Below, piece after piece: positions 5,556 to 53,977 of a stretch of 64,000 nucleotides of DNA (within the stretch, counting starts at the first letter, position 1; each line of letters begins with the position of its first letter). The translations under genes and the position numbers were made by a program. A model generated the notes under the pieces. It worked only from the letters and a program-made list of their open reading frames with translations, was not told the DNA's origin and ran no database searches. The DNA lies in assembly GCA_964291415.2 (NCBI GenBank), contig OZ219917.1:640001-704000 (forward strand), in the 5' to 3' direction. This stretch comes from Alphaproteobacteria bacterium (GTDB lineage Bacteria > Pseudomonadota > Alphaproteobacteria > SP197).

Positions 5556-7448
5556 TCAGAGAGCGACCGCCTTTGCCATCGTGTCGCTCATGCGCTTGGC
5601 GAAGCGGGCCGGATCCGGCGGCAATTCGCCTTCCTGGATCAGCGCCTGGTCGAGCAGCAGGTGGGCCATGTCCTCGATCTGAAGGCTCGAGCCCTCGCTG
5701 CGTGTCCGCTCGACAAGCGAGCGGATCAGGGCATGGGCGGGGTTGATCTCGAGAATGCGTTTCCCGGACAGGGCATCCTGACCGCTGGATTGCAGGATCT
5801 TCTGCAGGCGCATGCTCATTTCGCCCTCGTCCACCACGAGGCAGCAGGCCGAGTCGGTGAGACGCTTCGATTCGCGCACGTCCGTGACCTTGTTCTCGAG
5901 AGCGAGCTTGAGCATGGCGATGAGCGGCGTGATGTCGCCGGTCTCCTCCTCCTCCTCCTTGTCGGCGGCCCCGGCGATGGCGGAAAGATCGATGTCGCCG
6001 CGAGCGACATTGACGAGCGTCTTTCCTTCGTGGGCGTCGACCGACATGGTCCAGAACTCGTCCACCGGGTGATCGAGCAGGAGCACCTCGACGTCCTTCG
6101 CCCGGAAGGCCTCGAGCATGGGATTGGACCGCATGGTCTCGAGCCTGTCCCCGATCAGCAGGTAGATGGAGTCCTGACCCTCCTTCATCGCGGCGACGTA
6201 GTCGTCGAGACTGACCCAGCCGTCGCGTGTCGTCGAGCGGAAGCGCAGCAGGGGCAGGATGGTGTCGCGACGCTGGTGATCCTCGTAGACACCCTCCTTG
6301 AGGACGGCGCCGAAGGTCTCCCAGAAGGCGTGATAGGACTCCGCGTCCTTCTTCGCCTTCTTGCCAAGTTCGGTCAGCACCCGCTTGACGACCGCCCTCG
6401 AGATCCTGTCGACCACAGGGTTGTTCTGCAGAACTTCGCGGCTGACATTGAGAGGCAGGTCCTCGGAATCGACGATGCCGCGCAGGAACCGCAACCATGG
6501 CGGAATCAGCCCCTCGCATTCGTCGGTGATGAAGACCTTGCGGACATAGAGCTTGACGCCGTGCTGGCGTCTCGGATCGAAGAGATCGTAGGGCGCCGAG
6601 GACGGAATGAAGAGCAGGTTCGTGTAGGCGATGACGCCTTCTGCCCTGTTGTGGAGCGTCAGCCAGGGTTCGTCGAAGCCATGACTGACATGGCGGTAGA
6701 ACTCGGTGTACTCCTCCTCGGCTATGGCCGACCTGGGCCGCGTCCACAGGGCCGCAGCCTCGTTGACCTGGCGCGATTCGCCGCCGGCGGCAACCCAGAC
6801 CGGCAGTCCGATATGCCCGGAATAGGTCTTGATGATGGTTTCGAGACGATGCCTGTCGGCGAACTCCTTCGAGTCCTTCTTCAACTCCAGAGTGATGGCG
6901 GTGCCGCGCGGTGTATCGGCTGGCGCTTGCGCCACGTCGAAACCCGTCCGGCCGTCCGATGTCCAGGTCCAGGCTTCCCCGGATCCGGCCTTCCTGGACG
7001 TGACGGTTACTGACCCGGCGACCATGAAGACGGCATAGAACCCGACGCCGAACTGGCCGATCATGCTGATATCGGAACGTTCCTTCTTTGCCTTTTCCTT
7101 CTCGGCTTCGGCCAGTTGCCGGGCGAACTTCGCGGTGCCCGAACCGGCGATGGTGCCGAGATTGGCGACCAGCTCGTCCCGGCTCATGCCGATGCCATTG
7201 TCGGTGACCGTGATCAGTGACTTCTTGTCGTCGAGCGAGACGGTGATTGCGAGGTCGGGATCGTCCCGCATCAGCGAATCGTCGAGCTGGGCCTCGTAGC
7301 GCAGTCTGTCGCAGGCATCCGACGCGTTGGAGATCAGTTCCCGCAGGAACACCTCGCGCTTCGAATAGAGAGAATTGACGACAATATCGAGGATGCGGTT
7401 GACCTCGGCCTGAAACTCGTGATGGGCGCCGGTCTGCGTTTCGGCCAT
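5556..7448 (-). CDS. htpG: Hsp90 chaperone HtpG
   Basis: FQAEV, FLRELISNASDA, DNGIGM, IGQFGVGFY, DSEDLPLNVSRE, LEINPAH. Confidence 0.98.
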   Translation of the reverse strand: MAETQTGAHHEFQAEVNRILDIVVNSLYSKREVFLRELISNASDACDRLRYEAQLDDSLMRDDPDLAITVSLDDKKSLITVTDNGIGMSRDELVANLGTIAGSGTAKFARQLAEAEKEKAKKERSDISMIGQFGVGFYAVFMVAGSVTVTSRKAGSGEAWTWTSDGRTGFDVAQAPADTPRGTAITLELKKDSKEFADRHRLETIIKTYSGHIGLPVWVAAGGESRQVNEAAALWTRPRSAIAEEEYTEFYRHVSHGFDEPWLTLHNRAEGVIAYTNLLFIPSSAPYDLFDPRRQHGVKLYVRKVFITDECEGLIPPWLRFLRGIVDSEDLPLNVSREVLQNNPVVDRISRAVVKRVLTELGKKAKKDAESYHAFWETFGAVLKEGVYEDHQRRDTILPLLRFRSTTRDGWVSLDDYVAAMKEGQDSIYLLIGDRLETMRSNPMLEAFRAKDVEVLLLDHPVDEFWTMSVDAHEGKTLVNVARGDIDLSAIAGAADKEEEEETGDITPLIAMLKLALENKVTDVRESKRLTDSACCLVVDEGEMSMRLQKILQSSGQDALSGKRILEINPAHALIRSLVERTRSEGSSLQIEDMAHLLLDQALIQEGELPPDPARFAKRMSDTMAKAVAL

Positions 7449-7477
7449 ATTGGATGCCTCACTCTAGCCTTGGCCTG

Positions 7478-7505
7478 ATGTAGGCCACGATTCCCGCACT
7501 TCAAG
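7478..7505 (-). promoter_or_regulatory. RpoH (sigma32)-type promoter of htpG
   Basis: Minus strand reads CTTGAA-N15-CCTACAT about 30 bp upstream of the htpG ATG, matching the alphaproteobacterial RpoH consensus. Confidence 0.75.
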
Positions 7506-7590
7506 GCCGACGGTGCCATTCCGGACGTGCACCAGTCCGCACCCGGCATGACGGCGTCGGTCCGCCTCCGGGTCACCTGTGAGGAAAGAC

Positions 7591-9042
7591 TCAGGAAGGA
7601 TGAATGGCGGCGCGCAACGTCGTGGCGACGTTTGCGATCAGGGGGCCGAAGGCGCGGCGTTCCTCCAGGTTCGGGAACACGTTGCGCACGGTCTCTTCGA
7701 GTCCGGCCAGCGGTTCGGGGACCCGCCGCCCGGTGACGTCCAGGGCCCTCACGGCAATGGGCACAAGACTGGCGAGCGCGAGATCGAGGCATTCGCTGGC
7801 GCGCTGCAGCTTGGTCCAGGCGAGGAACACCGGGCTCGCCACGTCATTCTGTCCGAACCCCCCCGATTCGCTGCCCGGAAGCAGGGTGGCCTGGGCGTGA
7901 TACCGCGCCTCTTCCTCGTAGCCTGTCTGGGCCATGGGCAGGCATCCCATGTATCCACGGCGGATGCCGCCTTCGCGCTCGGGATCGATCAGCTGGTCGG
8001 GCAGCAGGGAGACATGGCCGTCGAGCAGTTTGGCGCCGTGGCGTTCGGCCAGGACACAGAGATTGGCTGAGGCCGCCGTCAAGGCGTCCATGGCAAGAAC
8101 CGCGTGGGGATTGTGGTATCCGCCGGTCGACACGAACTGTCCGAAGGGATGGTCCTCGTCCCGTTCGTCGATCCACACCGGGTTGTCTGTAACGGCCTGG
8201 AGGGATTCGCTGGCCACGTCGCGCACCAGGTCGACGGCGCGCCGGGCCTGGCCGAGCATGCGTGGCGCGATGCGGTAGCTCACCGGCGCCTGGTAGGGCC
8301 GTCGGCTGCCGCCATGGCCGCCGTCGATGAGTGTGCGCATGGTCCTGAGAGCCCAGGCGTCGCAGGTATTGTTCCAGTAGTCCTCGAGAGCCCCGGCGAG
8401 GTGGCCGAGGGGCGCATTGAACGCCTCGAACGAAAGCGCGAAGACCCGGGCAGCGAGATCGAGACGGGCTTCACCCGTCAGGGCGGCATCGGCGACAAGC
8501 CCGGTCGCCGACGGCGAACCGTTGACCAGGCACATGACATCCTTGACATCGGCCCCGACCGATTCGACGAGGGGAGCAAAGAGGTGGCTGAGCGAGAGTA
8601 TTTCGCCGGCACCACCCTGGCCGCGTGCCGGGATCACGGGCACGCTTTCCTGCGCGAGCATTGCCGCGACTCCCTGGGCAATCTCCGGCGAGACGGCTGC
8701 GTGGCCCTCGATGAAGTTGGTCAGGCGCGCGAGGATGATGAGGCGCACCACCCGATCGGGCAGAGGCTCGCCCCACGAGGCCGCGGCGCCGGTCGGCGAC
8801 ATGCGGGCATTGCTTGCGCGATCCTCCGGCCTGATCTTCTGTTTCGCCATCTGGCCGGCACCGGTCGTGACCCCGTAGATGGTGACTTCGGGGTCATGCT
8901 CGAGGATACGCATCAGTCTCTCGCGGCCGGCCTCCATGGCGGCCAGGGCTTCGGCGCCGATCTCGACGTCTTCGCGGTCCCAGACAACGCGGCGGGCGTT
9001 CTCCAGAGTGAGGTCGCTGCGCCTGGTGATGATGATGGTCAT
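7591..9042 (-). CDS. Aromatic amino-acid lyase (HutH/PAL fold) lacking the MIO Ala-Ser-Gly motif
   Basis: YGVTTG, LVNG, QAPVSYR, TDNP, GGYH, GQND conserved; MIO site reads RGQGGAGEIL instead of GSVGASGDL. Confidence 0.85.
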   Translation of the reverse strand: MTIIITRRSDLTLENARRVVWDREDVEIGAEALAAMEAGRERLMRILEHDPEVTIYGVTTGAGQMAKQKIRPEDRASNARMSPTGAAASWGEPLPDRVVRLIILARLTNFIEGHAAVSPEIAQGVAAMLAQESVPVIPARGQGGAGEILSLSHLFAPLVESVGADVKDVMCLVNGSPSATGLVADAALTGEARLDLAARVFALSFEAFNAPLGHLAGALEDYWNNTCDAWALRTMRTLIDGGHGGSRRPYQAPVSYRIAPRMLGQARRAVDLVRDVASESLQAVTDNPVWIDERDEDHPFGQFVSTGGYHNPHAVLAMDALTAASANLCVLAERHGAKLLDGHVSLLPDQLIDPEREGGIRRGYMGCLPMAQTGYEEEARYHAQATLLPGSESGGFGQNDVASPVFLAWTKLQRASECLDLALASLVPIAVRALDVTGRRVPEPLAGLEETVRNVFPNLEERRAFGPLIANVATTLRAAIHPS

Positions 9043-9053
9043 GGCTTGCGGAC

Positions 9054-10538
9054 CTATCGCATGACGAAGGGGTTATCCATCGGCTCGTCCGACGTGTTGA
9101 TCCACACGGTCTTGGGCCGGGTGTAGTCGTAGATCGCCTGGGCGCCGGATTCACGCCCGTAGCCGGAATCCTTGAAACCGCCGAATTCGGCGATGGGCGA
9201 CACCACTCGGTAGGTATTGACCCACACGATTCCGGCGCGAATCCGTTTCTGGACCCGCAGGGCACGGGCAAGATCCCGTGTGAAGACCCCGGCTGCGAGC
9301 CCGTAGCGGGTGTCGTTGGCCAGGGCGACGACCTCGTCTTCTTCGCTGAAGCGCAGCACCGAGAGCACCGGTCCGAACATCTCGGTATCGACAATCTCCA
9401 TTGACTGGTCCGGACAGGACACGATTGTCGGTTCGAAGTACCACCCGGTATCGGGATGATCCGGACGCTTGCCGCCGGTGAGCAGGGTGCCTCCCTCCTC
9501 CACGGCGCGGGCCACCTGGCGTTCGCACCCCTCGAGTTGGGCCATGGTGCAGAGCGGCCCCATCTGGGTCTCTTCGGCCAGGGGGTCGCCGATGCGGATG
9601 TCGCCGGCGCGCGCCACCAGGCGTTCGATGAAGGCATCGTGGACCGACTCGTGGAGGTAGATCCGGCTGCCGGCGACACAGCTCTGTCCGCTGGCGCCGA
9701 AGATGCCGGCAAGGGAACCATTCACCGCACTCTCGATGTCGGCATCGCCGAACACGATGATGGGAGACTTGCCTCCCAGTTCGAGGGAGACTTCGGCGAA
9801 ATTGTCTGCGGAGTTCCTGACGACATGCCGGGCCGTCGCCGGTCCGCCCGTGAAACTGATGCGCGCCACCAGGGGGTGGGTGGTCAAGGTGCGTCCGCAC
9901 GGTTCGCCATGGCCGGTGACGACGTTGACCACACCCGGCGGGAACCCGGCTTCCATGGCGAGTTCGGCAAACTCAAGCATGGCGGCCGAGGCGTGTTCGC
10001 TGGCCTTCAGGACCACGGTGTTGCCGGCCGCAAGCGCCGGCCCGATCTTCACCGCGACGAGGAAGAGCTGGCTGTTCCACGGCACGACGGCGGCCACCAC
10101 GCCCAGGGGTTCGCGCGTGGTGATGGTGAGCATGTCGTGCCGGTCGATGGGCAGGGTCTCGCCGGTCACCTTGTCGGCGAGGCCTGCATAGAAGTGAAAG
10201 AACTCGGCGATGTAGCGCGCCTGCCAGCGCGTCTCCTTGAACATCTTCCCGGTGTCGATGCACTCGGTGCGGCCCAGGTCCTCCGAGCGCTCGGCGAGCA
10301 GACCGGCGAGATTGCGCAGCAGGCGCCCCCGCTGGGTCGGCAGCATGGTCGCCCAGGGACCGCTGGTGAAGGCGCGATGCGCCGCCTGGACGGCCCGGTC
10401 GACATCCTCCCCGGTGGCGGCGGCGACCGTGGCCCAGGCCTTGCCGGTCGCCGGGTTGATGCTGTCGAAGGTGCCGCCGTCTCCGGAATCGACCCATGCG
10501 CCGTCGATCAGCATGCGGTAGTGCTTGAGTTCGTCCAT
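9054..10538 (-). CDS. Aldehyde dehydrogenase, TgnC-like
   Basis: PWNSQLFL, LKASE, FTGG, LELGGKSP, GQSCVAGSR, EMFGPV; C-terminus DEPMDNPFVMR resembles the TgnC subfamily as recalled. Confidence 0.9.
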   Translation of the reverse strand: MDELKHYRMLIDGAWVDSGDGGTFDSINPATGKAWATVAAATGEDVDRAVQAAHRAFTSGPWATMLPTQRGRLLRNLAGLLAERSEDLGRTECIDTGKMFKETRWQARYIAEFFHFYAGLADKVTGETLPIDRHDMLTITTREPLGVVAAVVPWNSQLFLVAVKIGPALAAGNTVVLKASEHASAAMLEFAELAMEAGFPPGVVNVVTGHGEPCGRTLTTHPLVARISFTGGPATARHVVRNSADNFAEVSLELGGKSPIIVFGDADIESAVNGSLAGIFGASGQSCVAGSRIYLHESVHDAFIERLVARAGDIRIGDPLAEETQMGPLCTMAQLEGCERQVARAVEEGGTLLTGGKRPDHPDTGWYFEPTIVSCPDQSMEIVDTEMFGPVLSVLRFSEEDEVVALANDTRYGLAAGVFTRDLARALRVQKRIRAGIVWVNTYRVVSPIAEFGGFKDSGYGRESGAQAIYDYTRPKTVWINTSDEPMDNPFVMR

Positions 10539-10639
10539 GATACCCGGCCCCGTTCCTGACAGCGGCCATTCAACACAGGCTTGCACACTGAACGCAACTC
10601 CCCACAGTGTCATCCGCCACACCAGGGGAGAACCGGACA

Positions 10640-11053
10640 ATGACGACGAAGAAACAGGTGATCGGCGGACCGCTGTCGATTGGCGGGCGGGTCCTGTCGC
10701 TTTCCCGCGCCATCCGGGCCGGGGATTTCGTGTTCCTGACCGGCCAGATCCCGCTTGAGGACGGAAAGCCGATGACCCATGGCAGCGTCGAGCAGCAGAC
10801 CCGGGTCGTCATCGAGGCGATTCGCGAGACCCTGGCGGAGGCGGGCTGCGATCTCGGCGACGTGGTGAAGGCCATGGTGTGGCTGAGGGACCGCGCCGAT
10901 TTCCCCGGCTTCAACGCGGTCTATGCGGAGTACTTTCCGATGGAGCCGCCTGCCCGCTCGGCGGTCATCTCCGAGTTGCTGGTCGATGTCCGCGTCGAGA
11001 TCGAGGTCGTCGCATTCAAACCGCTCGACGCGACATCCCGAGTCGCGCCATGA
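10640..11053 (+). CDS. RidA/YjgF/UK114 family protein
   Basis: GDFVFLTGQ, FNAVYAEYF, PPARSAV, VEIE; GGAG RBS upstream. Confidence 0.9.
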   Translation: MTTKKQVIGGPLSIGGRVLSLSRAIRAGDFVFLTGQIPLEDGKPMTHGSVEQQTRVVIEAIRETLAEAGCDLGDVVKAMVWLRDRADFPGFNAVYAEYFPMEPPARSAVISELLVDVRVEIEVVAFKPLDATSRVAP

Positions 11054-11099
11054 GGCGATCCTCGCCTATGATGGTGACAGCCGAATGTGGTTCGAGGCC

Positions 11100-11843
11100 A
11101 TGAAGATCTACCCCACCATCGAAATCATGGGAGGCAAGGCGGTCAATCGTGTGGATGGCCGTCACGAGACTCCCGAGCCCTTCGACCTCTCTCCGGAGGA
11201 TGCCGCCCGCCGGTTCGCCGACGCCGGTGCGGACTGCCTCCATGTGGTGGATGTCGACGGGACACTCCAGGGCGGCCGCCACAACGCCAAGCAGATCTGC
11301 CGCATCATCGACGGCGTGGCCATTCCGGTCCAGGTTGCGGGCGGCATCCGCTCGATCGGGTCCGTGCACTGGTGGTTCGAGCACGGCGCCTGGCGTGTGG
11401 GTCTGGGGACGGCAGCAGTCAAGGACCGGCACCTCGTCACCGACGCCTGCACGGCGTACCCGGACCGAATCATTGCCACGGTGGCAGCGCGCAACGGCAT
11501 GGTGGTCATCGAGGGATGGCGCGAGGAAACCGCCTTCCCGGCGATAGAGATGGCGAAGAGCCTGGTGGCGGCCGGTATCTCGGAAATCGTCTTTGTCGAC
11601 CTTGACCGCGACAAGGAACCCAGGGACTACAGTTTCGCCCGGACCATGCGCATGGGTGAGGCTCTCGACGTGCCGGTGATCTCGAGCGGCACGGTCACCG
11701 GCATCGACGATGTCTCGATGCTGAAGTACCTGCCGAACATTGGCGGCTGCATCATCGGCAGGGCACTGTTCCTTGGCCGCATCGATCTTGCCGAGGCCAT
11801 CGGCACCGCCCGCGCCTCCTACACGCCTGCACGGCTGATCTGA
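11100..11843 (+). CDS. HisA-like TIM-barrel paralogue
   Basis: IYPTIEIMGGKAV, LHVVDVDG, VQVAGGIRS, LGTAAV, IIGRALF; first catalytic Asp replaced by Glu; not in a his operon. Confidence 0.8.
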   Translation: MKIYPTIEIMGGKAVNRVDGRHETPEPFDLSPEDAARRFADAGADCLHVVDVDGTLQGGRHNAKQICRIIDGVAIPVQVAGGIRSIGSVHWWFEHGAWRVGLGTAAVKDRHLVTDACTAYPDRIIATVAARNGMVVIEGWREETAFPAIEMAKSLVAAGISEIVFVDLDRDKEPRDYSFARTMRMGEALDVPVISSGTVTGIDDVSMLKYLPNIGGCIIGRALFLGRIDLAEAIGTARASYTPARLI

Positions 11844-12643
11844 TGGGTGGGGTTGGTGTCGAGCGGCGCGGCCAGCTGCTGGAGATCACGATCGACCGGC
11901 CGAAGGTCAACGCCATCGACCGGGCTACAAGCCGTCTCATGGGAGAGGCCTTCGTCGCCTTTCGCGATGATCAGGACCTCAGGGTGGCGATTCTCACGGC
12001 CTCGGGAGACCGCCTGTTTTCGGCCGGCTGGGACCTCAAGGCTCTCGAGAGCGGCGATCAGCAGCTCGACAACTGGTGGGAAACGGAAGACGCCTCGCTG
12101 GGCGGCTTCGCCGGCATCACGGAGATGTGGAATCTCGACAAGCCGGTGATCGCCGCCCTCAACGGCCACGCCATCGGCGGCGGATTCGAGATTGCGCTCG
12201 CCTGTGATCTCGTCGTCGCTGCCGATCACGTGGAGTTTGCCCTGCCCGAGCTGCCCCTCGGCATTGTGCCGGATGCCGGAGCCCTGCAGCGCCTGCCGCG
12301 ACGCCTGCCAACCAATGTCGCCTTGGAAATGCTGCTGCTCGGCCGCCGCATGAAGGCCGCCGAGGCGCGGCGGCTGGGACTGGTGAACGCCGTCGTTCCG
12401 GCGGCCCAGCTCATGGCGAAGGCCCGCCACTGGGGTGAACGCCTTGCCACCGGCGCGCCACTGGCACTGGGCGCGGTCAAGGAGGTGCTGCGGGCCATCG
12501 AGGGAGAGACCATCGAGGGTGCCTTCAGAACCATGCGCTCGGCCGACCTCCCCCTCTACCGGCGAATGCTGGCCTCCGATGACGCGCGGGAAGGCATCAG
12601 CGCCTTCGTTGAACGGCGTCAGCCGGTCTTCCTGGGCAGATGA
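11843..12643 (+). CDS. caiD: Carnitinyl-CoA dehydratase-like enoyl-CoA hydratase
   Basis: RPKVNAIDRATSRLMGEAF..FRDD..LRVAI..FSAGWDLKA and GGFAGITE match CaiD. Confidence 0.8.
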   Translation: MGGVGVERRGQLLEITIDRPKVNAIDRATSRLMGEAFVAFRDDQDLRVAILTASGDRLFSAGWDLKALESGDQQLDNWWETEDASLGGFAGITEMWNLDKPVIAALNGHAIGGGFEIALACDLVVAADHVEFALPELPLGIVPDAGALQRLPRRLPTNVALEMLLLGRRMKAAEARRLGLVNAVVPAAQLMAKARHWGERLATGAPLALGAVKEVLRAIEGETIEGAFRTMRSADLPLYRRMLASDDAREGISAFVERRQPVFLGR

Positions 12644-13593
12644 CGATGGGCCGGCCTCAGCCACAGGACGTCTCGGCCGTGACCTGCCTTGGCGCCGGAC
12701 CGATCGGCGCCGGGTGGGCGGCGTTCTTCCTGGCCGCGGGCCATGACGTGACCTCCTGGATTCTCGAGGCGGACGAGGAGGAGAAACTCCGCTCCCTGGT
12801 GGCGACGGCCTGGGGCGCCCTGGAGCAGCTCGGTACTGTGGACGGCGCATCGCCCGGGCGGCTGCATGTCACCACGGACCTCCAGGCGGCCGTCGCCGGG
12901 GCCGACTTCGTGCAGGAGAGCGTGCCGGAAATCCTCGAGGTGAAGCAGGCGGTCTACGCGGATCTGGGCCGCCTGGCGCCACCGGATGTTGTCCTGTGTT
13001 CCTCGACCTCGGGTCTTTCCATGAGCGATATCCAGGCGCGCTGTCCGTCGCCGGAGCGCACGGTCACCGGCCATCCCTTCAATCCGCCCTACCTCATGCC
13101 GCTGGTCGAGATCGTCGCCGGTCGCCGGACGGACGCGGACGTGGTGGCCTGGACGGCGGCGTTCTTTCGCCACGTCGGCAAGGCCCCCCTTGTCATGGAA
13201 CGCGAGGTTCCCGGATTCATTGCCACGCGGTTGCAGGAGGCGATCTGGCGCGAGGCCCTGCACATGATTGCAGCCGGGGAGGCGACGGTCGAGCAGATCG
13301 ACACGGCGGTAACCAACGGCCCCGGACCGCGCTGGGCTCTCATGGGACCCTGCATGGTGTTCCATGTCGGCGGCGGCGAGGGCGGCATGGCCTATTGCCT
13401 GGAGCAGTTCGGACCGGCGCTGAAGTTTCCGTGGAGCCGCCTCGATGCGCCTGAACTCACAGACGACCTCGCGCGGCGCCTCATCGACGGCTGTGACGCG
13501 GCCGCCCCGGGAGAAGACTTCCGGACGCTGTCGGCGAAGATGAACGAGGGACTTGTCGGAGTTCTCAAAGCCCGTCGCGCGGCCGGTTTCTGA
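12640..13593 (+). CDS. cdhA: L-carnitine dehydrogenase (3-hydroxyacyl-CoA dehydrogenase family)
   Basis: GAGPIGAGWAA, QESVPE, SSTSG, GHPFNPPYLMPLVE, GPGPRWALMG, QFGPALKFPWSRLDAPEL. Confidence 0.8.
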   Translation: MTMGRPQPQDVSAVTCLGAGPIGAGWAAFFLAAGHDVTSWILEADEEEKLRSLVATAWGALEQLGTVDGASPGRLHVTTDLQAAVAGADFVQESVPEILEVKQAVYADLGRLAPPDVVLCSSTSGLSMSDIQARCPSPERTVTGHPFNPPYLMPLVEIVAGRRTDADVVAWTAAFFRHVGKAPLVMEREVPGFIATRLQEAIWREALHMIAAGEATVEQIDTAVTNGPGPRWALMGPCMVFHVGGGEGGMAYCLEQFGPALKFPWSRLDAPELTDDLARRLIDGCDAAAPGEDFRTLSAKMNEGLVGVLKARRAAGF

Positions 13594-13628
13594 CCATTCA
13601 GCCACTTGATTGACCTGGAGGACCATCC

Positions 13629-14513
13629 ATGAATACGGACGTCATCATCACTTGTGCCGTCACCGGCGCCGGGGATACGGCTTCACGGAGCGACAAGGTT
13701 CCGGTGACCCCGCGACAGATTGCCGATGCGGCGATCGAGGCGGCCCACGCGGGCGCTGCGGTCACTCATATCCACGTGCGTAATCCCGAGACCGGCAAGG
13801 GCTCGCGGGATCCCGATCTGTTCGAAGAGACCGTCAATCTGATCAGGCAGGATGGTGTCGACGTGATTCTCAACCTGACAGCGGGCATGGGCGGCGACTT
13901 CAATCTTGATGACGACAATCCGTCGCGCCCCGGCCCCGGCAGTGACATCGTCGGTCCCCTCGAACGGCTGCGGCATGTCGATCGCCTGCGCCCGGAGATC
14001 TGCTCTCTCGACTGCGGCACCATCAACTTCGGCGACGGCAACGAGACCTACGTCAACCCGGCCTCCTGGTGCCGCACCATGGCATCGCGCATCCGCGAGA
14101 TGGGGGTCAAGCCGGAAATCGAGGTGTTCGATCTCGGCCAGGTCCGTCTCGCATGCGCCATGTACGACGAGGGACTCATCGAGGATCCGCCCCTCTTCCA
14201 GGTCTGCCTCGGCATTCCCTGGGGTGCGGGGGCCGATACGCGCTCCATGATGACGATGGCGGACTGCCTGCCTCAGGGAGCCAACTGGGCGGGCTTTGGC
14301 ATCAGCCGCATGCAGATGCCCATGGTCGCCCAGGCCATGCTGCTCGGCGGCAATGTCCGGGTCGGTCTCGAGGACAACCTCTATCTGAAGCGCGGTGTGC
14401 TGGCGACCAACGGCCAGCTTGTCGAGAAGGCGGCCGGTATCATCGAGATGATGGGCGGACGGGTTGTCGGCGCGGCTGAAGCACGCCAGAAACTCGGTCT
14501 CGCCGCGGCATGA
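13629..14513 (+). CDS. Beta-keto acid cleavage enzyme (DUF849), 3-dehydrocarnitine cleavage CdhC-like
   Basis: [40 protein letters not shown]; follows carnitine dehydrogenase. Confidence 0.9.
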
Positions 14514-14520
14514 GGCCCGG

Positions 14521-14547
14521 GCGAGGGGCGCCGGGGGCGCCTCTCGC
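14521..14547 (+). terminator. GC-rich hairpin after the DUF849 gene
   Basis: gcgaggggcgcc-ggg-ggcgcctctcgc stem; no U-tract. Confidence 0.4.
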
Positions 14548-14613
14548 CACCGTAATGTCACCGGAATCAATCCTGGCGTAGTATCCGAATGTCAACGACA
14601 GGGGGAAGGCACC

Positions 14614-15681
14614 ATGAAGTTCAGTCTTTCGATCGATCTTGCCCGCGACAACCCGTCGGTCGACATGCGGGATGTCGCACGCCACGCCATGGACATGGTT
14701 CAGATGGCCGAGTCGGGGGGATTCGAGATTGTCTGGGCTGCCGAACACCATGCGATCGAGATGACGATCGCGCCCAACCCCTTCCAGCTGCTGGCGTGGT
14801 TCGGCGCCAACACCGACCAGATCCGCCTCGGCATCGCGGTGGTCCAGGCTCCCTACTGGCACCCGATCAAGGTCGCCGGAGAGGTCGGCCTGCTCGATCT
14901 CATGTCGGGCGGACGGGTGGAGTTCGGCATCGGCCGCGGCGCCTACCAGCGTGAATTCGACCGCATGATGGGAGGCATGGACCAGCACAAGGGGGTCGCC
15001 TACATGCAGGAGATGCTGCCGGTGCTCAAGGGCCTGTGGGCTGGAGACCACGAGCACCAGGGCGAGTTCTGGTCATTTCCCTCGGCAACCGCCTGTCCCA
15101 AGCCCCTGCAGAAGCCCCACCCTCCCCTGTGGGTCGCGGCACGTCATCCCTCGACCTACGACTGGGCCCTCTCCCAGGGGTGCAACATCATGTCCTGGGC
15201 GCTGACCCGTCCCTTCAGCGAGGTCGAGAAGTACCGGCAGCAGTTCGAGGATGCGCTGGCGAGGGGTCCGGGCATTCCGCGGCCGCGCTTCCTGACGATG
15301 CGCCATGCCGCCGTCTACCAGGACCGTGAGCGTGGCTGGCAGCCCTTTGTCGAGGCGGTGCAGAGGAGTGGCGTGCAGTTCGAGAACCTGTTCAAGCAGC
15401 TCGGAGAGGTGAAGAACGGCTTTGTCGAGGCGGTCGATCTTGCCTCGCTCGACAATGTCGCCGAATACGATCCCGAAATGCTGCGCACCAATCTGGTCTT
15501 CGGTACGCCTGACGAGGTGATTGCCAAACTACGCCGCTACGAGGCCCTCGGTGTCGACAATTTCCTCTATCGCGTGACCGGTCCGACGTTCGAATTGCAG
15601 AAGTCCTCGTTGCGCCTTTTCATCGACGAGGTCATGCCGGCCTTCCCGAACTCGCGCGCCTTCATGAAGGCGGCGGAATAG
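14614..15681 (+). CDS. LLM-class flavin-dependent monooxygenase, TgnB-like
   Basis: MKFSL, WAAEHHA.EMTIAPNP, PYWHPIKVAGE, GRGAY, PKPLQKPHPPLWVAAR, EVMPAF. Confidence 0.88.
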   Translation: MKFSLSIDLARDNPSVDMRDVARHAMDMVQMAESGGFEIVWAAEHHAIEMTIAPNPFQLLAWFGANTDQIRLGIAVVQAPYWHPIKVAGEVGLLDLMSGGRVEFGIGRGAYQREFDRMMGGMDQHKGVAYMQEMLPVLKGLWAGDHEHQGEFWSFPSATACPKPLQKPHPPLWVAARHPSTYDWALSQGCNIMSWALTRPFSEVEKYRQQFEDALARGPGIPRPRFLTMRHAAVYQDRERGWQPFVEAVQRSGVQFENLFKQLGEVKNGFVEAVDLASLDNVAEYDPEMLRTNLVFGTPDEVIAKLRRYEALGVDNFLYRVTGPTFELQKSSLRLFIDEVMPAFPNSRAFMKAAE

Positions 15682-44001: not shown

Positions 44002-45585
44002 TCAGGCCGCAGGCAGCATGTTCTCGCGCGGAAGGAAGATGTCGTAGCGTTCGCGGATGGCGGCGTCGGTCGCTTCCGGAATGTGGGCCGGATAGTACGA
44101 GGAGAGCAGCGTGTCCTTGCGTCCGATCGCCTTCGACACGAGGTCGGGACGGTCGTTCTCCAGCCATTCCTTCGGGCTCGATCGGTCGCCGACCGTCGGG
44201 TAGACATACTCGGTCTGCATCAGCCTCAGGGTCTGGTCGGCGCCCAGATAGTGGCCGGGGCCGCCGAGGCATACCTCCTTCATCGTGTCGAGCGCCATGG
44301 TCTCGTCATTGACCTCGATGCCGCGCACGCAGCGCATGCAGGCGCCGATGACGTCGTTGTCGACGAAGAGGGCCTCGAGGCAGTGCGACAGCAGGGACGA
44401 ATGCATGCCGACGCTCTCGTAGACGAGGTTGAGCCCGGAGAGTCCGGCCATGACATTGGCAAGGCCCCGTTCGTAACCGGCCTGCATGTCCATCTCCTTG
44501 GAATCGGACATCGCGCAGGCCGATCCTCCCGGGAGATCGTAGTAGCGCGCCATCTGTCCGCAGGCAGCGGTGAGCAAACCCTGTTCCGGTGAACCGCCGG
44601 ACATGGCGCCGGTGCGCAGATCGGAGACAAAGGGCCAGGTGCCGAAGATGGCCGGATGGCCGGGGGAGAGCGCGTTGACGTAGACGAGGCCGGCCAGGCA
44701 CTCGGCCACCGCCTGCACGACCGCGCCGGCAAGGGGTGCGGGCGCGGTGGCGCCGGCCTGGCCCGCCGAGAGCAGCAGGATCGGCATGCCGCCCCGGATC
44801 ACTGTTTCCATCACCAGGCAGCTCTCGGTGGCGAACTTCATCGGCGGCACGACGAAGCAGTTCGAGTTCGAAACAAAGGGACGCTGCCGCCAGGTTTCCT
44901 CGGATCCGGCGACCATGTGGAGCATGTCGAGTCCCTCGGCGGCGTGGTCAGCCGCAGTGAAGGCCGTGCCGATATGCTTGGTGGTGCCCGAGATGCAGGC
45001 GTAGAGCGTGTTGAGGTCCATGTCGCGCGGATCGACCGTGTCGCGCGGCGTCAGGGTGCGCTGGAAGAAATGGATGTTGTCGAGAGAATCGACGATGCGT
45101 GCCGAATCATAGAGGTCCTGAACGGTCGGTTCGCGGTTCTCACGTGTCGCCGGGTCGTAGACGAAGACGGCGGCGCCGGCGGTGCCGAAGTGCACGCGGT
45201 ACCCTCCCGGACGTATGTCGTGGAGCGGATCCTGGCCATGAAGCGTGAAGTCGCGCGCCGCGATGGCGACCATGTCCTCGACAAGGGCTCGCGGGAAACG
45301 AATGCGGCCATCGTCGCCGGCGATGGCGCCGGCGCCCGTGAGAATCTCGACGCCGCTCGGAGGAGCTTCGATCAGGCCGACCTCCTCGAGGGCGGCAAGG
45401 GCCGTGTTGTTGATCTTCTCCATGTCGGCGTCGCTGAGCGGCCTGTAGGTCCCGCCCTCGAGACCGGGTCTCACCGGCCTCATGTTGTCGGGCAAGGGCG
45501 CGGCACGCGCCGCCTTGCGGGCGGCACGTCCTCCGCCGCGGCGGCTGCGCCGGGGAGAGGTGTCGGCAGATTCGCGGTCGGTCAT
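44002..45585 (-). CDS. mttB: Trimethylamine methyltransferase family protein (non-pyrrolysine MttB/MtgB-like)
   Basis: HFGTAGAA, SAGQAGATAPA, VSDLRTGAMSGGSPE, GPGHYLG; no in-frame amber. Confidence 0.9.
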   Translation of the reverse strand: MTDRESADTSPRRSRRGGGRAARKAARAAPLPDNMRPVRPGLEGGTYRPLSDADMEKINNTALAALEEVGLIEAPPSGVEILTGAGAIAGDDGRIRFPRALVEDMVAIAARDFTLHGQDPLHDIRPGGYRVHFGTAGAAVFVYDPATRENREPTVQDLYDSARIVDSLDNIHFFQRTLTPRDTVDPRDMDLNTLYACISGTTKHIGTAFTAADHAAEGLDMLHMVAGSEETWRQRPFVSNSNCFVVPPMKFATESCLVMETVIRGGMPILLLSAGQAGATAPAPLAGAVVQAVAECLAGLVYVNALSPGHPAIFGTWPFVSDLRTGAMSGGSPEQGLLTAACGQMARYYDLPGGSACAMSDSKEMDMQAGYERGLANVMAGLSGLNLVYESVGMHSSLLSHCLEALFVDNDVIGACMRCVRGIEVNDETMALDTMKEVCLGGPGHYLGADQTLRLMQTEYVYPTVGDRSSPKEWLENDRPDLVSKAIGRKDTLLSSYYPAHIPEATDAAIRERYDIFLPRENMLPAA

Positions 45586-45595
45586 GGCCTTTTTC

Positions 45596-48046
45596 CTACA
45601 TGCGCACACGCTCGGACTTGGGATCGTACATGGGTCTCAGCGAGGCGCGGGCGGCGGTTCTCGTCCCGGCGACCTCGATTTCGAAGGAAGACGCAAGGAG
45701 ACCGTCGGTCGATTCGCCTGATTCAAGGGGAACGTAGCCCATGCCGATGGCGCCGCCGAGATGGTGACCGTAGTTGCCGGATGTCAGGTAGCTGACGATG
45801 CGGCCGTCCCGCACGATCGGCTCGTTGTGGTAGAGCAGGGGTTCCGGGTCCTCGAGCATGAACTGCACCATGCGCCGTTCCAGGCCCTCGTCCTTCTTCC
45901 TGAGGACGGCGTCCCGGCCGATGAAGTCGGGCTTCTGCACACGTACGGCAAACCCCAGGCCCGCCTCGAGCACGTGATCCTCGTCCGTGATGTCGTGGCC
46001 GAAATGCCGGAAGGCTTTCTCGATGCGGCAGCTGTCGAGGACATGGAGGCCGGCGAGACGCAGATCGAAGGGCCGGCCCGCTTCCTCCAGCGTCTCGAAG
46101 ACATGGGCCGCCATCTCGGTGCTGACGTAGAGTTCCCATCCGAGTTCGCCGACGTAGCTGACCCGGTGGGCGCGGCAGATGGCGTAACCGATCTCGATTT
46201 CCCGCATGGTTCCGAAGGGGTGGTGATCGTTTGAAAGGTCTGCCGGAGAGCAGGCGTTGAGCACGTCGCGCGATCGCGGGCCCATGAGACACAGCACCGC
46301 TTCTGCGGCCGTGACGTCGGTGTAGACGACGTGTGCGTCGTCCGGCGTGTGACGCTTCAGCCAAGCGAGGTCCCGCATCAGGGTCGCCCCGGGGGTGACG
46401 ATGAGAAAGGCCGTCTCGGAGAGCCTTGTGACGGTGCAGTCGCACTCGATCCCGCCGCGGTGGTTGAGGAACTGGGTGTAGACGAGACGTCCCGTCTCGA
46501 CGTCGATCTCGTTGGCGCAGATGCGGTTCAGTACCGCCGCGGCGTCCGCGCCCTCGGCCCGGATCTTGCCGAACGACGTCATGTCGAAGAGACCGACGCC
46601 CGTTCTCACTGCAAGATGCTCGTCGTGCGCGCAGCCGAACCAGTTCTGCCGCTTCCACGTGTAGCGGTACTCGGGCTCCATGCCGTCGCGGGCGAACCAG
46701 TTGGCGCGTTCCCAGCCGGCCACGACACCGAAGCAGGCCCCGCGGGTCTTCAGGTGATCGTGGATCGGCGACCGGCGCACGCCGCGGGCGGTCTGCGGTT
46801 GGCGGTAGGGAAAGTGGTCGGCATAGAGCAGGCCGAGCGATTCGCTCACCCTGTCCCTGAGATAGGTCCGGTTTCGCTGGAAAGGCTGGACGCGGCGGAT
46901 GTCGACATCCCACAAATCGAAAGGCGGCTCGCCGTCCTCGATCCACTGTGCCAGCGCCATGCCCGCGCCGCCTGACGACACAATGCCGATGGAGTTGTAG
47001 CCGCAGGCGACGAAGTAGCCCCTCAGCTCCGGCGCTTCGCCCAGGTAGTAGCTGTTGTCCGGCGTGAAACTCTCCGGTCCGTTGAAGAACGTGTGGATGC
47101 CGGCCTCGGCCAGCATCGGCATGCGGTTGATCGCCTTTTCGAGAACCGGTTCAAAATGGGCGATATCCTCGGGCAGCTGGTCGAAACAGAAATCCTCCGG
47201 GATTCCATCCATGCCCCAGGGCTTGGCGTCCGGCTCGAAGGCGCCGAGCATCATCTTGCCCGCGTCCTCCTTGTAGTAGGCCCATTCGTCGGGCACCCGG
47301 AGAACCGGCAGCCGGCCGAGTCCTTCCACCGGCTCGGTAACGATGTAGAAGTGCTCGCAGGCATGAAGCGGGATGTTCACTCCCGAGAGGGCGCCGAGGT
47401 CGCGCGCCCACATGCCGGCGCAGTTCACCACGACATCGCTGGCGATGGTTCCCCTGGCGCCGTCGGATTCCCATGAGACCCCGGTCACCCGTCCGTCTGC
47501 CCGGTGCACATCCGTGACCTTGACGCCTTCGGCAATCTTCACGCCACGCTGACGGGCGCCCGCGGCCAGGGCGAGGGCGATGTTGGCAGGGTCGCACTGA
47601 CCGTCATGGGGGAGGTGGACGGCGCCCACGACATCCTTGACGTTGAGCCACGGATAGAGATCACCTGCTTCGCCGGGCGAGATCTCGTTGACCTCGATGC
47701 CGAAGGCACGGGCCAGCGAGGCCGTGCGGGTGATCTCCTCGAGCCGCTCGCTGGTGAGAGCCACGGTGATGGAGCCGTTCTGGCGCATGCCGGTGGCGAC
47801 ACCGGTCTCCTCCTCGAGCCTGACGTAGAGGTCCGCCGAGTACTTCGCCAGCCGTGTCATGTTCTGTCCCGACCGCAACTGTCCGACCAGGCCGGCAGCA
47901 TGCCACGTGGTGCCTGAAGTCAGCTGCTGTCTTTCGAGGAGAACAACGTCCTGCCAGCCGAGTTTGGCGAGATGATAGGCGACTGACGAACCCGACACGC
48001 CTCCACCGACGATGACGGCGCGGGCCTTGCTTGGAAGATCCGTCAT
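45596..48046 (-). CDS. GcvT-family FAD-dependent dehydrogenase (sarcosine/dimethylglycine dehydrogenase-like)
   Basis: IVGGGVSG, SGTTWHAAG, FFNGPESFTPD, GWERANWF, VSYVGELGWE, PMYDP. Confidence 0.92.
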   Translation of the reverse strand: MTDLPSKARAVIVGGGVSGSSVAYHLAKLGWQDVVLLERQQLTSGTTWHAAGLVGQLRSGQNMTRLAKYSADLYVRLEEETGVATGMRQNGSITVALTSERLEEITRTASLARAFGIEVNEISPGEAGDLYPWLNVKDVVGAVHLPHDGQCDPANIALALAAGARQRGVKIAEGVKVTDVHRADGRVTGVSWESDGARGTIASDVVVNCAGMWARDLGALSGVNIPLHACEHFYIVTEPVEGLGRLPVLRVPDEWAYYKEDAGKMMLGAFEPDAKPWGMDGIPEDFCFDQLPEDIAHFEPVLEKAINRMPMLAEAGIHTFFNGPESFTPDNSYYLGEAPELRGYFVACGYNSIGIVSSGGAGMALAQWIEDGEPPFDLWDVDIRRVQPFQRNRTYLRDRVSESLGLLYADHFPYRQPQTARGVRRSPIHDHLKTRGACFGVVAGWERANWFARDGMEPEYRYTWKRQNWFGCAHDEHLAVRTGVGLFDMTSFGKIRAEGADAAAVLNRICANEIDVETGRLVYTQFLNHRGGIECDCTVTRLSETAFLIVTPGATLMRDLAWLKRHTPDDAHVVYTDVTAAEAVLCLMGPRSRDVLNACSPADLSNDHHPFGTMREIEIGYAICRAHRVSYVGELGWELYVSTEMAAHVFETLEEAGRPFDLRLAGLHVLDSCRIEKAFRHFGHDITDEDHVLEAGLGFAVRVQKPDFIGRDAVLRKKDEGLERRMVQFMLEDPEPLLYHNEPIVRDGRIVSYLTSGNYGHHLGGAIGMGYVPLESGESTDGLLASSFEIEVAGTRTAARASLRPMYDPKSERVRM

Positions 48047-50496
48047 GGTCCTTGGTCCTTCAGTGAGAGATTTTCGGGGTCGAAGAGCGGCTGGTCGGGC
48101 TGCACGGTGGCCGGATAGCGGCGGCCGTACATCTCGATTTCCAGGCGGGTGCCGGGCTCAGAGCAATCGTGTCTCACCATGCCGAGCGCGATGGATTTGC
48201 CGATCCGGTGTCCCCAGCCGCCGGAGGTGGTTTCTCCGACCATGGCGTCGTCCTTCCAGATGGTGGACATGTAGGGAGCATCATAGGCACCCGCCTCGAC
48301 GGTCATGATGGCGAAGCGTTTCGCGACTCCCTGCTGGCGCTGGTTTTCCAGCGCGGGCTTGCCCCTGAAGGAGTCCTTGTCCCACTTGACGAAGCGTTCG
48401 AGGCCGCCCTCGAGAATGGTGTAGTCCGTCGACAGGTCCGCCTTCCAGGCACGGTAGCCTTTCTCCAGGCGCAGGCTGTTGAGAGCGAACATGCCGAAGG
48501 GCCTGAGATCGTGGCGCTGACCGGCTTCGAGCAGCGCATCGTAGACGGCGGGTGTGTCGGCAGCCTCGCTGTGGATCTCCCAGCCAAGCGCGCCGGCATA
48601 GGACACTCGGATCAGCAGCACGGTTGCGCCGGCGATCGTCGTCTCCTGCCAGGTGAGCCACGGAAGGGTGAGATCGGCATCGCAGAGGTCACCGATGAGG
48701 GCGCGGGCATGGGGCCCGGAGACGATCTGGCAGCACCGCCTTCCTGTCTGGTTCTCCAGGGTCAGGCAAGATCGTGCCGGCAGGTGTTTCACCAGCCAGT
48801 CGCGGTCGTGCCACTGCGCGGCGCCCGCACTGATGAGGTACATCTCGTTTTCGTCGAGACGGATGATCGAGAGTTCGGTGATGATCCTTCCGGCATCGTC
48901 GGCGAAATAGCCCAATCCCAGACGGCCGACCCGCGGCACGCCGCCCGTGATCATCTCCCGCAGCCAGTCCCGCGCCCCGTCGCCTTTCAGGTGAAACCAG
49001 GAGAAGCCCGCAAGATCGAGAACGCCCACGGCATCGCGCACGGCGAGGCATTCCTCGCGAATCCGCGGAAACCAGGGACCATCGCGCTCCCAGGTCTGCG
49101 TCGCCTCCTCGGAGGTGTCGTCTCCAGGACGGGCAAACCAGTTGGCGCGTTCCCATCCGCCATAGGCGCCCATCTGCCCCCCCATGGCCCGGATCCTGTC
49201 GTGGACCGGCGACACGCGCTTGTCGCGTCCGGCGGGCCAGGCGTGATGCGGGAAGTGCATGGCATACTCGTGGCCGTAGACCTCGATGCCCTTGGCGATG
49301 GCGTGATCCCGGTCGGCGTAGTCGGTGAATCGGCGTGGATCGCAGGACCACATGTCCCACTCGGTGGCGCCCTCGGTCACCCATTCGGCAAGCACCTTGC
49401 CGGCGCCCCCCGCCTGGGCAATGCCGAAGGTGAAGACGCAGGCCTCGAAGGCGTCCGGCACGCCCGGCATGGGACCGATCAGGGGATTGCCGTCCGGCGC
49501 ATAGGGGATTGGTCCGTTGATGGTCCGGCTGACGCCGCCCTCGGCGAGCAACGGCACCCTCGCCATGGCGTCCTCGATGTACCACGCGAGACGTTCGAGA
49601 TCCTCGGGGTAGAGCATGAAGGAGAAATCCTCCGGCATGGGATCGTCGTCGCTGATCCAGTGGGCACGGCAGTTTCTCTCGTAGGGGCCGAGATTGAGGC
49701 CGGACTTCTCCTGGCGCAGGTAGTAGCTGCTGTCGACATCCCGCAGCAGGGGAAGCTTGCGTCCGGTCCTTTCCGTGTAGGCCTTCAGTTCGGGGATGTC
49801 CCCGGTGATCATGTACTGGTGCGCCATGGCGACGACCGGCACCTCGCGGCCGAACATGGCGCCGACCTCTCCGGCACGATAACCGGCGGCATTCACCACG
49901 TACTGGCAGCGGATGTCGCCACCGGTCGTTTCCACCACCCATTCGCTGTCGCGCCGCACCCCGGTGACCGGGCAGAACCGCACGACGCTGGCGCCGAGGT
50001 CGCGCGCGCCCTTGGCCAGGGCCTGGGTCAGCTGGGCCGGATCGATGTCGCCGTCGTAGGGATCATAGAGGCCGCCGGCGAGATCGTGGGTCTCGAGATA
50101 GGGATAGAGTTCCTTCAGCTCGTCCGTCGTGCAGGTCCTGACATCCATGCCCTGGTAGCGGCCCATGCCGACCACCCTCTCGAACTCCAGCATGCGGTTG
50201 TCGGAATGCGCCAGGCGGATCGATCCGGTCACATGATAGTTCATCGGATAATCGACCGCCTCGGCGAGACCTCGGTAGAGTTCGGCCGAGTAGCGCTGCA
50301 TGTTCATGACCGACCAGCTGGCCGAGAAGGTCGGCACGTTGCCGGCGGCATGCCAGGTCGAGCCGGCGGTCAGTTCGTTCTTCTCGAGCAGCACGCAGTC
50401 GGTCCAGCCGGCGCGTGCCAGGTGATAGAGGCACGAGGCTCCCACGGCGCCGCCGCCGATGATCACCACCCGTGCGGTTCCCGGTAAGTCCGCCAT
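48043..50496 (-). CDS. GcvT-family FAD-dependent dehydrogenase (dimethylglycine dehydrogenase-like)
   Basis: IIGGGAVG, ELTAGSTWHAAG, INGPIPYAPDG, GWERANWF, SLRLEKGYRAW. Confidence 0.92.
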   Translation of the reverse strand: MADLPGTARVVIIGGGAVGASCLYHLARAGWTDCVLLEKNELTAGSTWHAAGNVPTFSASWSVMNMQRYSAELYRGLAEAVDYPMNYHVTGSIRLAHSDNRMLEFERVVGMGRYQGMDVRTCTTDELKELYPYLETHDLAGGLYDPYDGDIDPAQLTQALAKGARDLGASVVRFCPVTGVRRDSEWVVETTGGDIRCQYVVNAAGYRAGEVGAMFGREVPVVAMAHQYMITGDIPELKAYTERTGRKLPLLRDVDSSYYLRQEKSGLNLGPYERNCRAHWISDDDPMPEDFSFMLYPEDLERLAWYIEDAMARVPLLAEGGVSRTINGPIPYAPDGNPLIGPMPGVPDAFEACVFTFGIAQAGGAGKVLAEWVTEGATEWDMWSCDPRRFTDYADRDHAIAKGIEVYGHEYAMHFPHHAWPAGRDKRVSPVHDRIRAMGGQMGAYGGWERANWFARPGDDTSEEATQTWERDGPWFPRIREECLAVRDAVGVLDLAGFSWFHLKGDGARDWLREMITGGVPRVGRLGLGYFADDAGRIITELSIIRLDENEMYLISAGAAQWHDRDWLVKHLPARSCLTLENQTGRRCCQIVSGPHARALIGDLCDADLTLPWLTWQETTIAGATVLLIRVSYAGALGWEIHSEAADTPAVYDALLEAGQRHDLRPFGMFALNSLRLEKGYRAWKADLSTDYTILEGGLERFVKWDKDSFRGKPALENQRQQGVAKRFAIMTVEAGAYDAPYMSTIWKDDAMVGETTSGGWGHRIGKSIALGMVRHDCSEPGTRLEIEMYGRRYPATVQPDQPLFDPENLSLKDQGP

Positions 50497-50541
50497 CGCC
50501 ACTCCATCATCACCGGCGCCGGCCCGCAGTCTATCGACGGA
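50203..50541. repeat. Direct repeat of the dehydrogenase 5' end plus upstream region, copy in the intact gene
   Basis: Matches 58912-59250 at a constant offset of 8709 at the start, ATG and end. Confidence 0.9.
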
Positions 50542-53167: not shown

Positions 53168-53977
53168 ATGAGACGCCTGGCACGCCTGTTCTATCTCGCT
53201 GTCATTGCGGTGATCAGCCTGTATCTGCTCTTGCCGACCCTTGTCGTTGCACTGGCTTCGGTGTCACCCACCGCCATGCTGAGCTTTCCGCCTTCGGGCT
53301 TCAGCCTCGAATGGTACGGCAACTTCCTTGCCCGGGACGAGTTTACCGAGTCCTTTGTCATCAGCGTTTTGCTTGCCGCCTTTGCGGCCCTGGTGTCGAC
53401 GGGGCTCGCGGTCGTCGCCGCAACGGGCCTGCGCCGTGTCCGCCGGCGCGCCCGTCAGTTCGTGGCCGGGCTGGCGCTCTTTCCCATCATCCTGCCAACC
53501 ATCGTCTACGGTCCCGCGCTCTTGCTGTTGTCGGGAAGCCTGGGGGCGACCCAGTCCATGTGGCTCACGCTGCTGGTGATTGCCGGCGCGCACCTCGTGC
53601 TGTCGCTGCCGTTCGCCGTCCAGATCTGCTTTACCAGCTACGACGATCTCGACCCTGCCATGGAAGAGGCCGCGGTCATCGCGGGCGCGGGCCACGGACG
53701 CGTTCTGCGCCGCATCGTGGTGCCCCTCCTGATCCCGGGCATCCTTGCCAGCCTGATGTTCGCGTTCCTGATATCCTTCGACGAGCCGGTCGTCTCGCTC
53801 TTCATGTCAAGGCACGATGTGGTGACGCTGCCGGTGCGAATTCTGACCTACATGCGGTTCCGACCGGATCCAACGATTGCCGCCATCTCGACCATCATGA
53901 GCCTGTTGGCCCTGTTGGCCATCATCGTTGTCGATCGTCAGATCGGGCTGGACCGCATCCTCGGTTTACGACGCTGA
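53168..53977 (+). CDS. PotC-like ABC permease
   Basis: FPPSGFSLEWY, EEAA..AGA, AFLISFDE, TLPV, DPTIAAIS. Confidence 0.92.
   Translation: MRRLARLFYLAVIAVISLYLLLPTLVVALASVSPTAMLSFPPSGFSLEWYGNFLARDEFTESFVISVLLAAFAALVSTGLAVVAATGLRRVRRRARQFVAGLALFPIILPTIVYGPALLLLSGSLGATQSMWLTLLVIAGAHLVLSLPFAVQICFTSYDDLDPAMEEAAVIAGAGHGRVLRRIVVPLLIPGILASLMFAFLISFDEPVVSLFMSRHDVVTLPVRILTYMRFRPDPTIAAISTIMSLLALLAIIVVDRQIGLDRILGLRR

Follow-up and report, generated by a model that had tools for sequence, protein, structure and literature searches.

The window examined here, 64,000 nucleotides of an Alphaproteobacteria bacterium (assembly GCA_964291415.2, contig OZ219917.1, positions 640,001 to 704,000), carries on its minus strand a gene whose product, P0001, is a relative of histidine ammonia-lyase with the PF00221 fold. 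We propose, tentatively and with a confidence that stops a little short of even, that P0001 is a lyase devoid of the cofactor 4-methylideneimidazole-5-one (MIO) that cleaves hercynine (the betaine of histidine) to give urocanate along with trimethylamine. A one-genome-per-species scan returned 365 related loci, the best 80 of which underlie all the locus figures given below, and analysis of their gene neighbourhoods brought out two standout placements, in hut clusters and in tmm/tdm clusters. Because one enzyme thus sits with both urocanate catabolism and trimethylamine oxidation, hercynine is indicated, since it alone as a substrate releases urocanate as well as trimethylamine.

A trimethylamine-releasing lyase would be the reading that best fits this comparative context; the reaction and the part played by each residue are inferences, as is the sharing of one substrate between the window copy and the hut/tmm branch. 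A sequence-only reading of the same DNA had proposed that the enzyme eliminates a methylated amine or another onium group from a betaine that it left unnamed. The first half of that proposal finds indirect support, since release of trimethylamine best fits the tmm, tdm and betaine-type ABC transporter clusters of the close orthologues, and the second half can be sharpened, since the linkage to hutU points to hercynine.

Placement of the orthologues in hut and tmm/tdm clusters

De novo clustering of the neighbouring open reading frames (ORFs) found no family common to more than 15 of the 80 loci, the top clusters being out-of-frame ORFs over the lyase itself, and because it was uninformative the flanking genes were annotated singly: two genes on each side in those of the other 70 loci (beyond the ten that share the window's own arrangement, described below) for which an ORF could be assigned to the lyase (242 proteins altogether), followed by a tblastn census of the informative neighbours over all 80 loci. 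In six loci (L022, L038, L043, L051, L055 and L057) hutU lies directly upstream of the lyase gene on the same strand, and in two of these (L051 and L055), where the frames overlap by 4 bases, the lyase is probably translationally coupled to it. The linked HutU proteins reach 943-950 bits against the hutU cut-off of 375 and about 700 bits against thiourocanate hydratase, below its cut-off of 930, which makes ergothioneine an unlikely substrate; it was rejected as a candidate, the linked urocanases being HutU rather than thiourocanate hydratase. HutI, HutC, HutF and HutG also stand beside hut-linked lyases, all of them above their cut-offs.

The second placement is seen in three complete loci (L042, L047 and L066), where the lyase gene lies between genes for a betaine-type binding protein and for trimethylamine monooxygenase, Tmm (824-835 bits; cut-off 675), in the company of the trimethylamine N-oxide demethylase Tdm (1246-1250 bits; cut-off 1100) and of an ABC permease and ATPase, and in two partial ones (L058 and L030), where the end of the contig cuts this arrangement short. 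A tree of 79 locus proteins (L057 being absent), to which the window protein was added, shows lyases of the hut-linked and of the tmm-linked kind intermingled inside one tight clade, with mutual identities of 83-91%. Elsewhere the recurrent neighbours are sarcosine oxidase subunits (four loci), Rieske oxygenases distantly like GbcA (three loci), and a cysteine-synthase-like gene and a Baeyer-Villiger-type monooxygenase (7-8 loci).

The hut clusters by themselves could also be read as housing an MIO-independent histidine ammonia-lyase that stands in for HutH. In the six loci the gene takes the position of HutH behind hutU; it is the sole PF00221 match in four of the five hut-linked genomes searched (G001, G003, G004 and G005); and in three of the five tmm-linked genomes (G406, G408 and G409) a canonical HutH stands beside hutU, with the MIO-free gene at another place. 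We nonetheless regard such an enzyme as very improbable, for plain histidine deamination leaves the 83-91% identical orthologues in tmm/tdm clusters unexplained, the His and Glu with which HutH binds the imidazole ring are lost, and the window genome is already equipped with a canonical HutH; in addition, the available portion of a recent preprint states that the MIO-free enzyme of Shewanella woodyi did not deaminate histidine, its authors calling MIO essential for amino removal (bioRxiv 10.1101/2025.08.13.670108). The fuller version of this idea, that MIO was lost in this branch separately from the ergothionase lineage and that, in genomes where it is the sole PF00221 gene and is translationally coupled to hutU, the gene provides the organism's histidine ammonia-lyase and so deaminates plain histidine without the cofactor, would deserve equally little credence. 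A hercynine lyase, by comparison, would suit both kinds of cluster, and it is supported as well by the lyase being the sole PF00221 match in those four hut-linked genomes and by the presence of hutU elsewhere in all five tmm-linked genomes (above the cut-off in four).

A cofactor site without the MIO-forming triad

The reading frame of P0001 is intact on the minus strand, the plus-strand frame over the same interval being interrupted by a stop. The protein matches PF00221 (aromatic amino acid lyase) in Pfam with an E-value of 2.2e-64, in two stretches, and its eight NCBIfam matches (hutH, TAM, PAL and others) all lie far under their cut-offs, that to hutH (TIGR01225) scoring 160.6 bits against an equivalog cut-off of 539.15; a look-up in the ESM Atlas returned generic names only. 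The HutH-fold motifs that the sequence-only reading had listed are all found in the translation, namely YGVTTG, NG (N174-G175), SYR (S255-R257) and DNP (D286-P288), and the ORF that carries them is real.

When P0001 is aligned with a canonical HutH of its own genome and with one of a second genome, the canonical loop GSVGASGDLAPL stands opposite GQGGA-GEILSL: P0001 has no Ser there and its loop is a residue short, just as had been claimed for the site at about 8600-8625, and some 21 residues after the loop are absent. Equally borne out is the loss of the Tyr of QDPYSLR, whose place in YQAPVSYR is taken by Val254. Tyr56, Asn174, Gln251 and Arg257 are retained, Gln251 and Arg257 being what we take to be the family's carboxylate-binding residues, and Ala86 stands opposite the His of LSHAAG in HutH, a mapping for which the HMMER alignment with TAM was also used. 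Without the Ser of the triad the methylidene of MIO cannot form. Because that Ser is missing, P0001 is, to judge from its sequence, incapable of building the cofactor. The parts of the Shewanella lyase preprints at our disposal likewise describe the Ala-Ser-Gly triad as required for MIO (bioRxiv 10.1101/2025.08.13.670108), and there and in the related preprint the lid-loop Tyr is given a catalytic role in the family.

Conservation of the GAGE loop among homologues, on which the sequence-only reading had staked its case, is borne out. A word-indexed homologue search found 1850 relatives among the scored candidates; the best 120, which were inspected, have for the most part 481-491 residues and identities to P0001 of 59-95%, and their existing names are only 'aromatic amino acid lyase' or 'histidine ammonia-lyase'. 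G141, G143, G144, A145, G146, E147 and I148 are invariant in all 24 homologues compared, with identity down to 59%. Across the 80 locus proteins, G146 is found in every one and E147 in 79; Y56, G57, V58 and T59 are invariant, as are N174, Q251, V254 and R257; and in the GQND motif N399 occurs in 79 and D400 in 80. Altogether 100 positions, H310 among them, are invariant in these proteins; close to the presumed pocket, variation is confined to residues 84-86 (at position 86, 77 proteins have A, I or P and one has His). When representatives at 50% identity were searched exhaustively, 176 clusters came up at E<=1e-30, and among the 66 full-length ones that were aligned none has Ala-Ser-Gly at the MIO site, the majority having an xGxGE/D loop, YQAPVSxRI and GQxD. 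With the loop conserved, the frame intact and full-length relatives numbering in the hundreds, P0001 is neither a decayed gene nor the bearer of a chance lesion, and these alignments place it in a large, diverse branch that is predicted to be free of MIO.

On these residues a mechanism can be sketched. P0001 would be a cytoplasmic enzyme of the aromatic-amino-acid-lyase fold that, without MIO, takes trimethylamine off an amino acid trimethylated at N-alpha, by beta-elimination: the lid-loop Tyr56 would abstract the beta-proton, Gln251, Arg257 and Asn174 would bind the carboxylate, the shortened GGAGE loop would make space for the bulky, pre-activated trimethylammonium group where MIO would otherwise be, and the urocanate product would feed the Hut pathway. 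As a conjecture, the family-specific invariants W90, W223, N224, D228, W230, Y250, Y309 and Y375-E378 might hold the ring or cage the trimethylammonium. The MIO-free PF00221 enzymes assayed so far all free trimethylamine from histidine betaines, according to the accessible text of the Shewanella preprints (bioRxiv 10.1101/2025.08.13.670108).

Further PF00221 genes came to light beside these. The window genome holds a distant paralogue of the same MIO-free branch (34% identity; G000:C4:1490281-1491594, L083/L102), which adjoins a gene for a family-5 solute-binding protein, and a second unusual PF00221 gene (G000:C1:484245-485609, L082/L103; 525 aa, 434 bits), in the product of which the loop reads GSIGA-SDLA, the Gly of Ala-Ser-Gly being gone, the Glu of NxED kept and a Cys standing at the His position; this protein is likely another MIO-free type, distinct from the P0001 family. 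The gene contexts of both were uninformative. Genome G002 holds five PF00221 paralogues of the MIO-free branch, including a tandem pair on contig C91. Five copies that are 70-72% identical to P0001 (L016, L021, L022, L023 and L026) come from records labelled Binatia, Thermodesulfobacteriota and Chloroflexota and nest among alphaproteobacterial copies in the tree, which suggests gene transfer or mis-assigned contigs.

The window copy and its surroundings

P0001 has all 100 invariant positions and falls in a sister branch that is 68-71% identical to the hut/tmm clade, and several observations weigh against extending hercynine lysis to it. The two branches are set apart by 15 fixed differences, among them T84A, G85R and A86I (TGA in the window, ARI in the hut/tmm branch) and C227 in place of the H of the WNNxHDxW motif. 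No hut or tmm gene adjoins the window copy; the genome that it belongs to encodes a canonical HutH, carries HutU on another contig than the lyase and yields no Tmm above the cut-off, the best match reaching 52.8 bits. Ala86 and Asn399 replace the imidazole-binding His and Glu of HutH, so that an imidazole substrate would have to be held differently. For the family as a whole, the census found none of the informative neighbours in 45 of the 80 loci, which is to say that the gene keeps to no set location. Among 401 sampled genomes of the class, a relative at E<=1e-100 is present in 14, of which 13 also have hutU, against 106 with hutU among the 401 overall, a co-occurrence that is supportive only and may partly reflect lifestyle and shared descent, the 14 holders being related members of about ten genera and lifestyle being uncontrolled.

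Modelling delivered the fold and not the active site. The AlphaFold2 model of P0001 has a mean predicted local distance difference test score (pLDDT) of 77.9 and template-modelling (TM) scores of 0.75-0.83 to TAM, TAL and HAL in Foldseek, so that the fold expected by the sequence-only reading is matched; residues 54-69, 82-90, 141-146 and 389-401, all of them active-site loops, have a pLDDT below 50, which also counts against the proposal, and for that reason we draw no residue-level conclusion on substrate binding from the model. The real active site is built from several subunits, and the model is that of a monomer. It is the position in a sister branch, the fixed differences and the content of the window genome that keep our confidence in a hercynine lyase, as far as the window copy is concerned, somewhat under even. 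The same genome contains a second hutU-like gene (G000:C2:100390-101990, L100/L101), whose match is split over two different open frames (497.9 and 72.5 bits) and which may be frameshifted or a diverged paralogue.

The lack of a fixed address and the loops that are not modelled with confidence would both suit a binding or regulatory protein, or some other chemistry on the old fold, with the hut and tmm neighbourhoods being incidental. We think this improbable, given that none of the 80 proteins departs from the catalytic Tyr or from the Gln, Arg and Asn that bind the carboxylate, and that the coupling to hutU, together with the repeated placement in two clusters sharing one possible substrate, can hardly be chance.

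A more serious competitor, still unlikely in our judgement, is that P0001 is an MIO-free lyase of trimethylamine or another onium group whose window copy acts on a betaine other than hercynine, which the aldehyde dehydrogenase encoded upstream might supply. That gene has its stop codon 11 bases away, the distance that the sequence-only reading had given, and is conserved in the ten closest loci; the window branch has fixed residues of its own at 84-86 and at C227; great diversity in the wider branch, where one genome (G002) has as many as five paralogues, suggests several substrates; and the window has more methylated-amine genes, one of the MttB family and two DAO-GCV_T fusions. On the other side, the 100 positions that are invariant in all 80 proteins include nearly all the motif residues, residues of the T/G/A type at 84-86 are found in further branches of the same orthologue group, the link to the aldehyde dehydrogenase is limited to one narrow lineage, and the neighbours point to no candidate substrate. 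Hercynine lysis remains the reading that we prefer for the family, with the reserve just stated for the window copy.

The surroundings of the gene (Table 1) had been offered in the sequence-only reading as support for its role, an argument that finds no support. In only 10 of the 80 loci, all of them at least 82% identical, is the lyase found together with the aldehyde dehydrogenase and the carnitine-like genes, so that the local-context argument rests on one narrow lineage, and the window neighbourhood was rejected as a guide to function for being lineage-specific. The neighbours are all below equivalog cut-offs as well. The best NCBIfam match of the upstream enzyme is betaine-aldehyde dehydrogenase (513 bits; cut-off 669), and it is possibly an operon partner of the lyase, in the window's lineage only, by a putative link; in the five-gene cluster, every member of which falls short of its cut-off, the best matches include L-carnitine dehydrogenase (299 bits; cut-off 414) and crotonobetainyl-CoA hydratase (307 bits; cut-off 500). 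The HisA-like barrel is an odd partner in that cluster. Downstream of the lyase lies a gene for HtpG, and a scan for promoters and terminators over 7300-11000 gave zero sites.

Table 1. Coordinates of the lyase gene, of its motifs and of neighbouring genes in the window
Feature	Position	Strand	Basis
MIO-free PF00221 lyase homologue gene (P0001)	7591..9042	-	ORF of 483 aa; PF00221 match
Loop GQGGAGEI, residues 141-148, in place of MIO-forming GSVGASGD	8599..8622	-	Alignment with canonical HutH
Lid loop YGVTTG with Tyr56 (codon 8875-8877), presumed beta-proton base	8860..8877	-	Aligns with HutH YG(I/V)NTG
QAPVSYR, residues 251-257; Val254 in place of the QDPYSLR Tyr	8272..8292	-	Alignment with HutH
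T-G-A, residues 84-86; Ala86 opposite the imidazole-binding His of HutH (SH motif)	8785..8793	-	Alignments with HutH and TAM
GQND, residues 397-400; Asn399 opposite the imidazole-binding Glu of HutH (NQED)	7843..7854	-	Alignment with HutH
Aldehyde dehydrogenase gene, upstream of the lyase; 11-base gap to the lyase start	9054..10538	-	PF00171, E 2.8e-170; start at first Met, our reading
Five-gene cluster facing the lyase: HisA/HisF-like barrel, CaiD-like enoyl-CoA hydratase, carnitine-dehydrogenase-like 3-hydroxyacyl-CoA dehydrogenase (HCDH), BKACE enzyme, luciferase-like monooxygenase	10923-15681	+	

Further along the window, 35 kb from the lyase, a methylated-amine catabolic block occupies positions 44002-50502 on the minus strand, with a gene for an MttB-family methyltransferase followed by two genes for DAO and GCV_T fusions of 816-819 aa, of the dimethylglycine/sarcosine dehydrogenase type. 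Between ABC transporter genes, at 53311-56253 on the plus strand, lies a gene for a 980-aa protein with a C-terminal domain like the beta-subunit of N,N-dimethylformamidase.

Significance and comparison with known enzymes

Trimethylamine is a key currency of marine nitrogen and carbon and a health-relevant gut metabolite, and few enzymes that release it are known. Should the proposal be correct, P0001 would be a bacterial source of trimethylamine and its family a second lineage of hercynine lyases, whose active site is constructed in another way and which would operate aerobically in the cytoplasm, tied either to the breakdown of histidine or to the oxidation of trimethylamine; the imidazole-binding His/Glu pair would turn out to be dispensable for trimethylamine elimination, and a function would be provided for many genes named just 'aromatic amino acid lyase' or, wrongly, 'histidine ammonia-lyase', in a family that the 365 loci show to be common. 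A literature search on hercynine and MIO-less lyases, with most subscription journals outside its coverage, found no description of the P0001 branch and only two relevant preprints, both on Shewanella. The hercynine lyase reaction itself is already known from S. woodyi; what is new is the evidence of hut/tmm linkage, which narrows the reaction of the P0001 family.

Against solved structures, P0001 was compared by sequence with phmmer and by fold through the AlphaFold2 monomer model and Foldseek. The top match by both routes is the tyrosine 2,3-aminomutase SgTAM (PDB 2rjr/2ohy; phmmer E 1.2e-21, 80 bits; Foldseek rank 1, 24% identity), which is MIO-dependent and has its MIO residue, X, opposite the GAGE loop of P0001. 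With HutH of P. putida (PDB 1b8f; HAL at about 73 bits) P0001 shares the fold (TM 0.79-0.83), the lid-loop Tyr, NG, Q..S.R and DNP, whereas HutH has in addition the MIO triad, about 21 more residues after the loop, the Tyr of QDPYSLR, the His of SH and the Glu of NQED. The ergothionase of Treponema denticola (PDB 6s7j) is an MIO-free enzyme of the same fold that releases trimethylamine (Foldseek rank 12, TM 0.75); by sequence, however, its match to P0001 amounts to 42 bits (E 4.8e-10) over the N-terminal 154 residues only, with 18% identity in the fold alignment, whereas MIO enzymes score 70-80 bits. The likeness to ergothionase-type lyases that the sequence-only reading had drawn is thus not sustained by sequence, the imidazole-binding His and Glu being lost and 6s7j ranking below the MIO enzymes, and this ranking hints that the P0001 branch may have lost MIO separately from ergothionase.

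The closest functional parallel is Swoo_3913 of S. woodyi, which, according to the portion of the preprint available, converts hercynine to urocanate and trimethylamine, keeps the imidazole-binding His117 and Glu467, and, as an exported enzyme, serves anaerobic respiration in partnership with a periplasmic urocanate reductase (bioRxiv 10.1101/2025.08.13.670108); S. oneidensis has related enzymes that split ergothioneine and N-pi-methyl hercynine, as the accessible parts of the Shewanella preprints report. Going by the preprint's description, Swoo_3913 and P0001 have in common a PF00221 fold that lacks Ala-Ser-Gly and retains the catalytic Tyr as well as the Gln and Arg that bind the carboxylate. 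They differ in that P0001 aligns with HutH from the first residues and has orthologues in cytoplasmic hut or tmm clusters, and in that it has Ala86 and Asn399 where Swoo_3913 has His117 and Glu467, a correspondence mapped via HutH and not by direct alignment.

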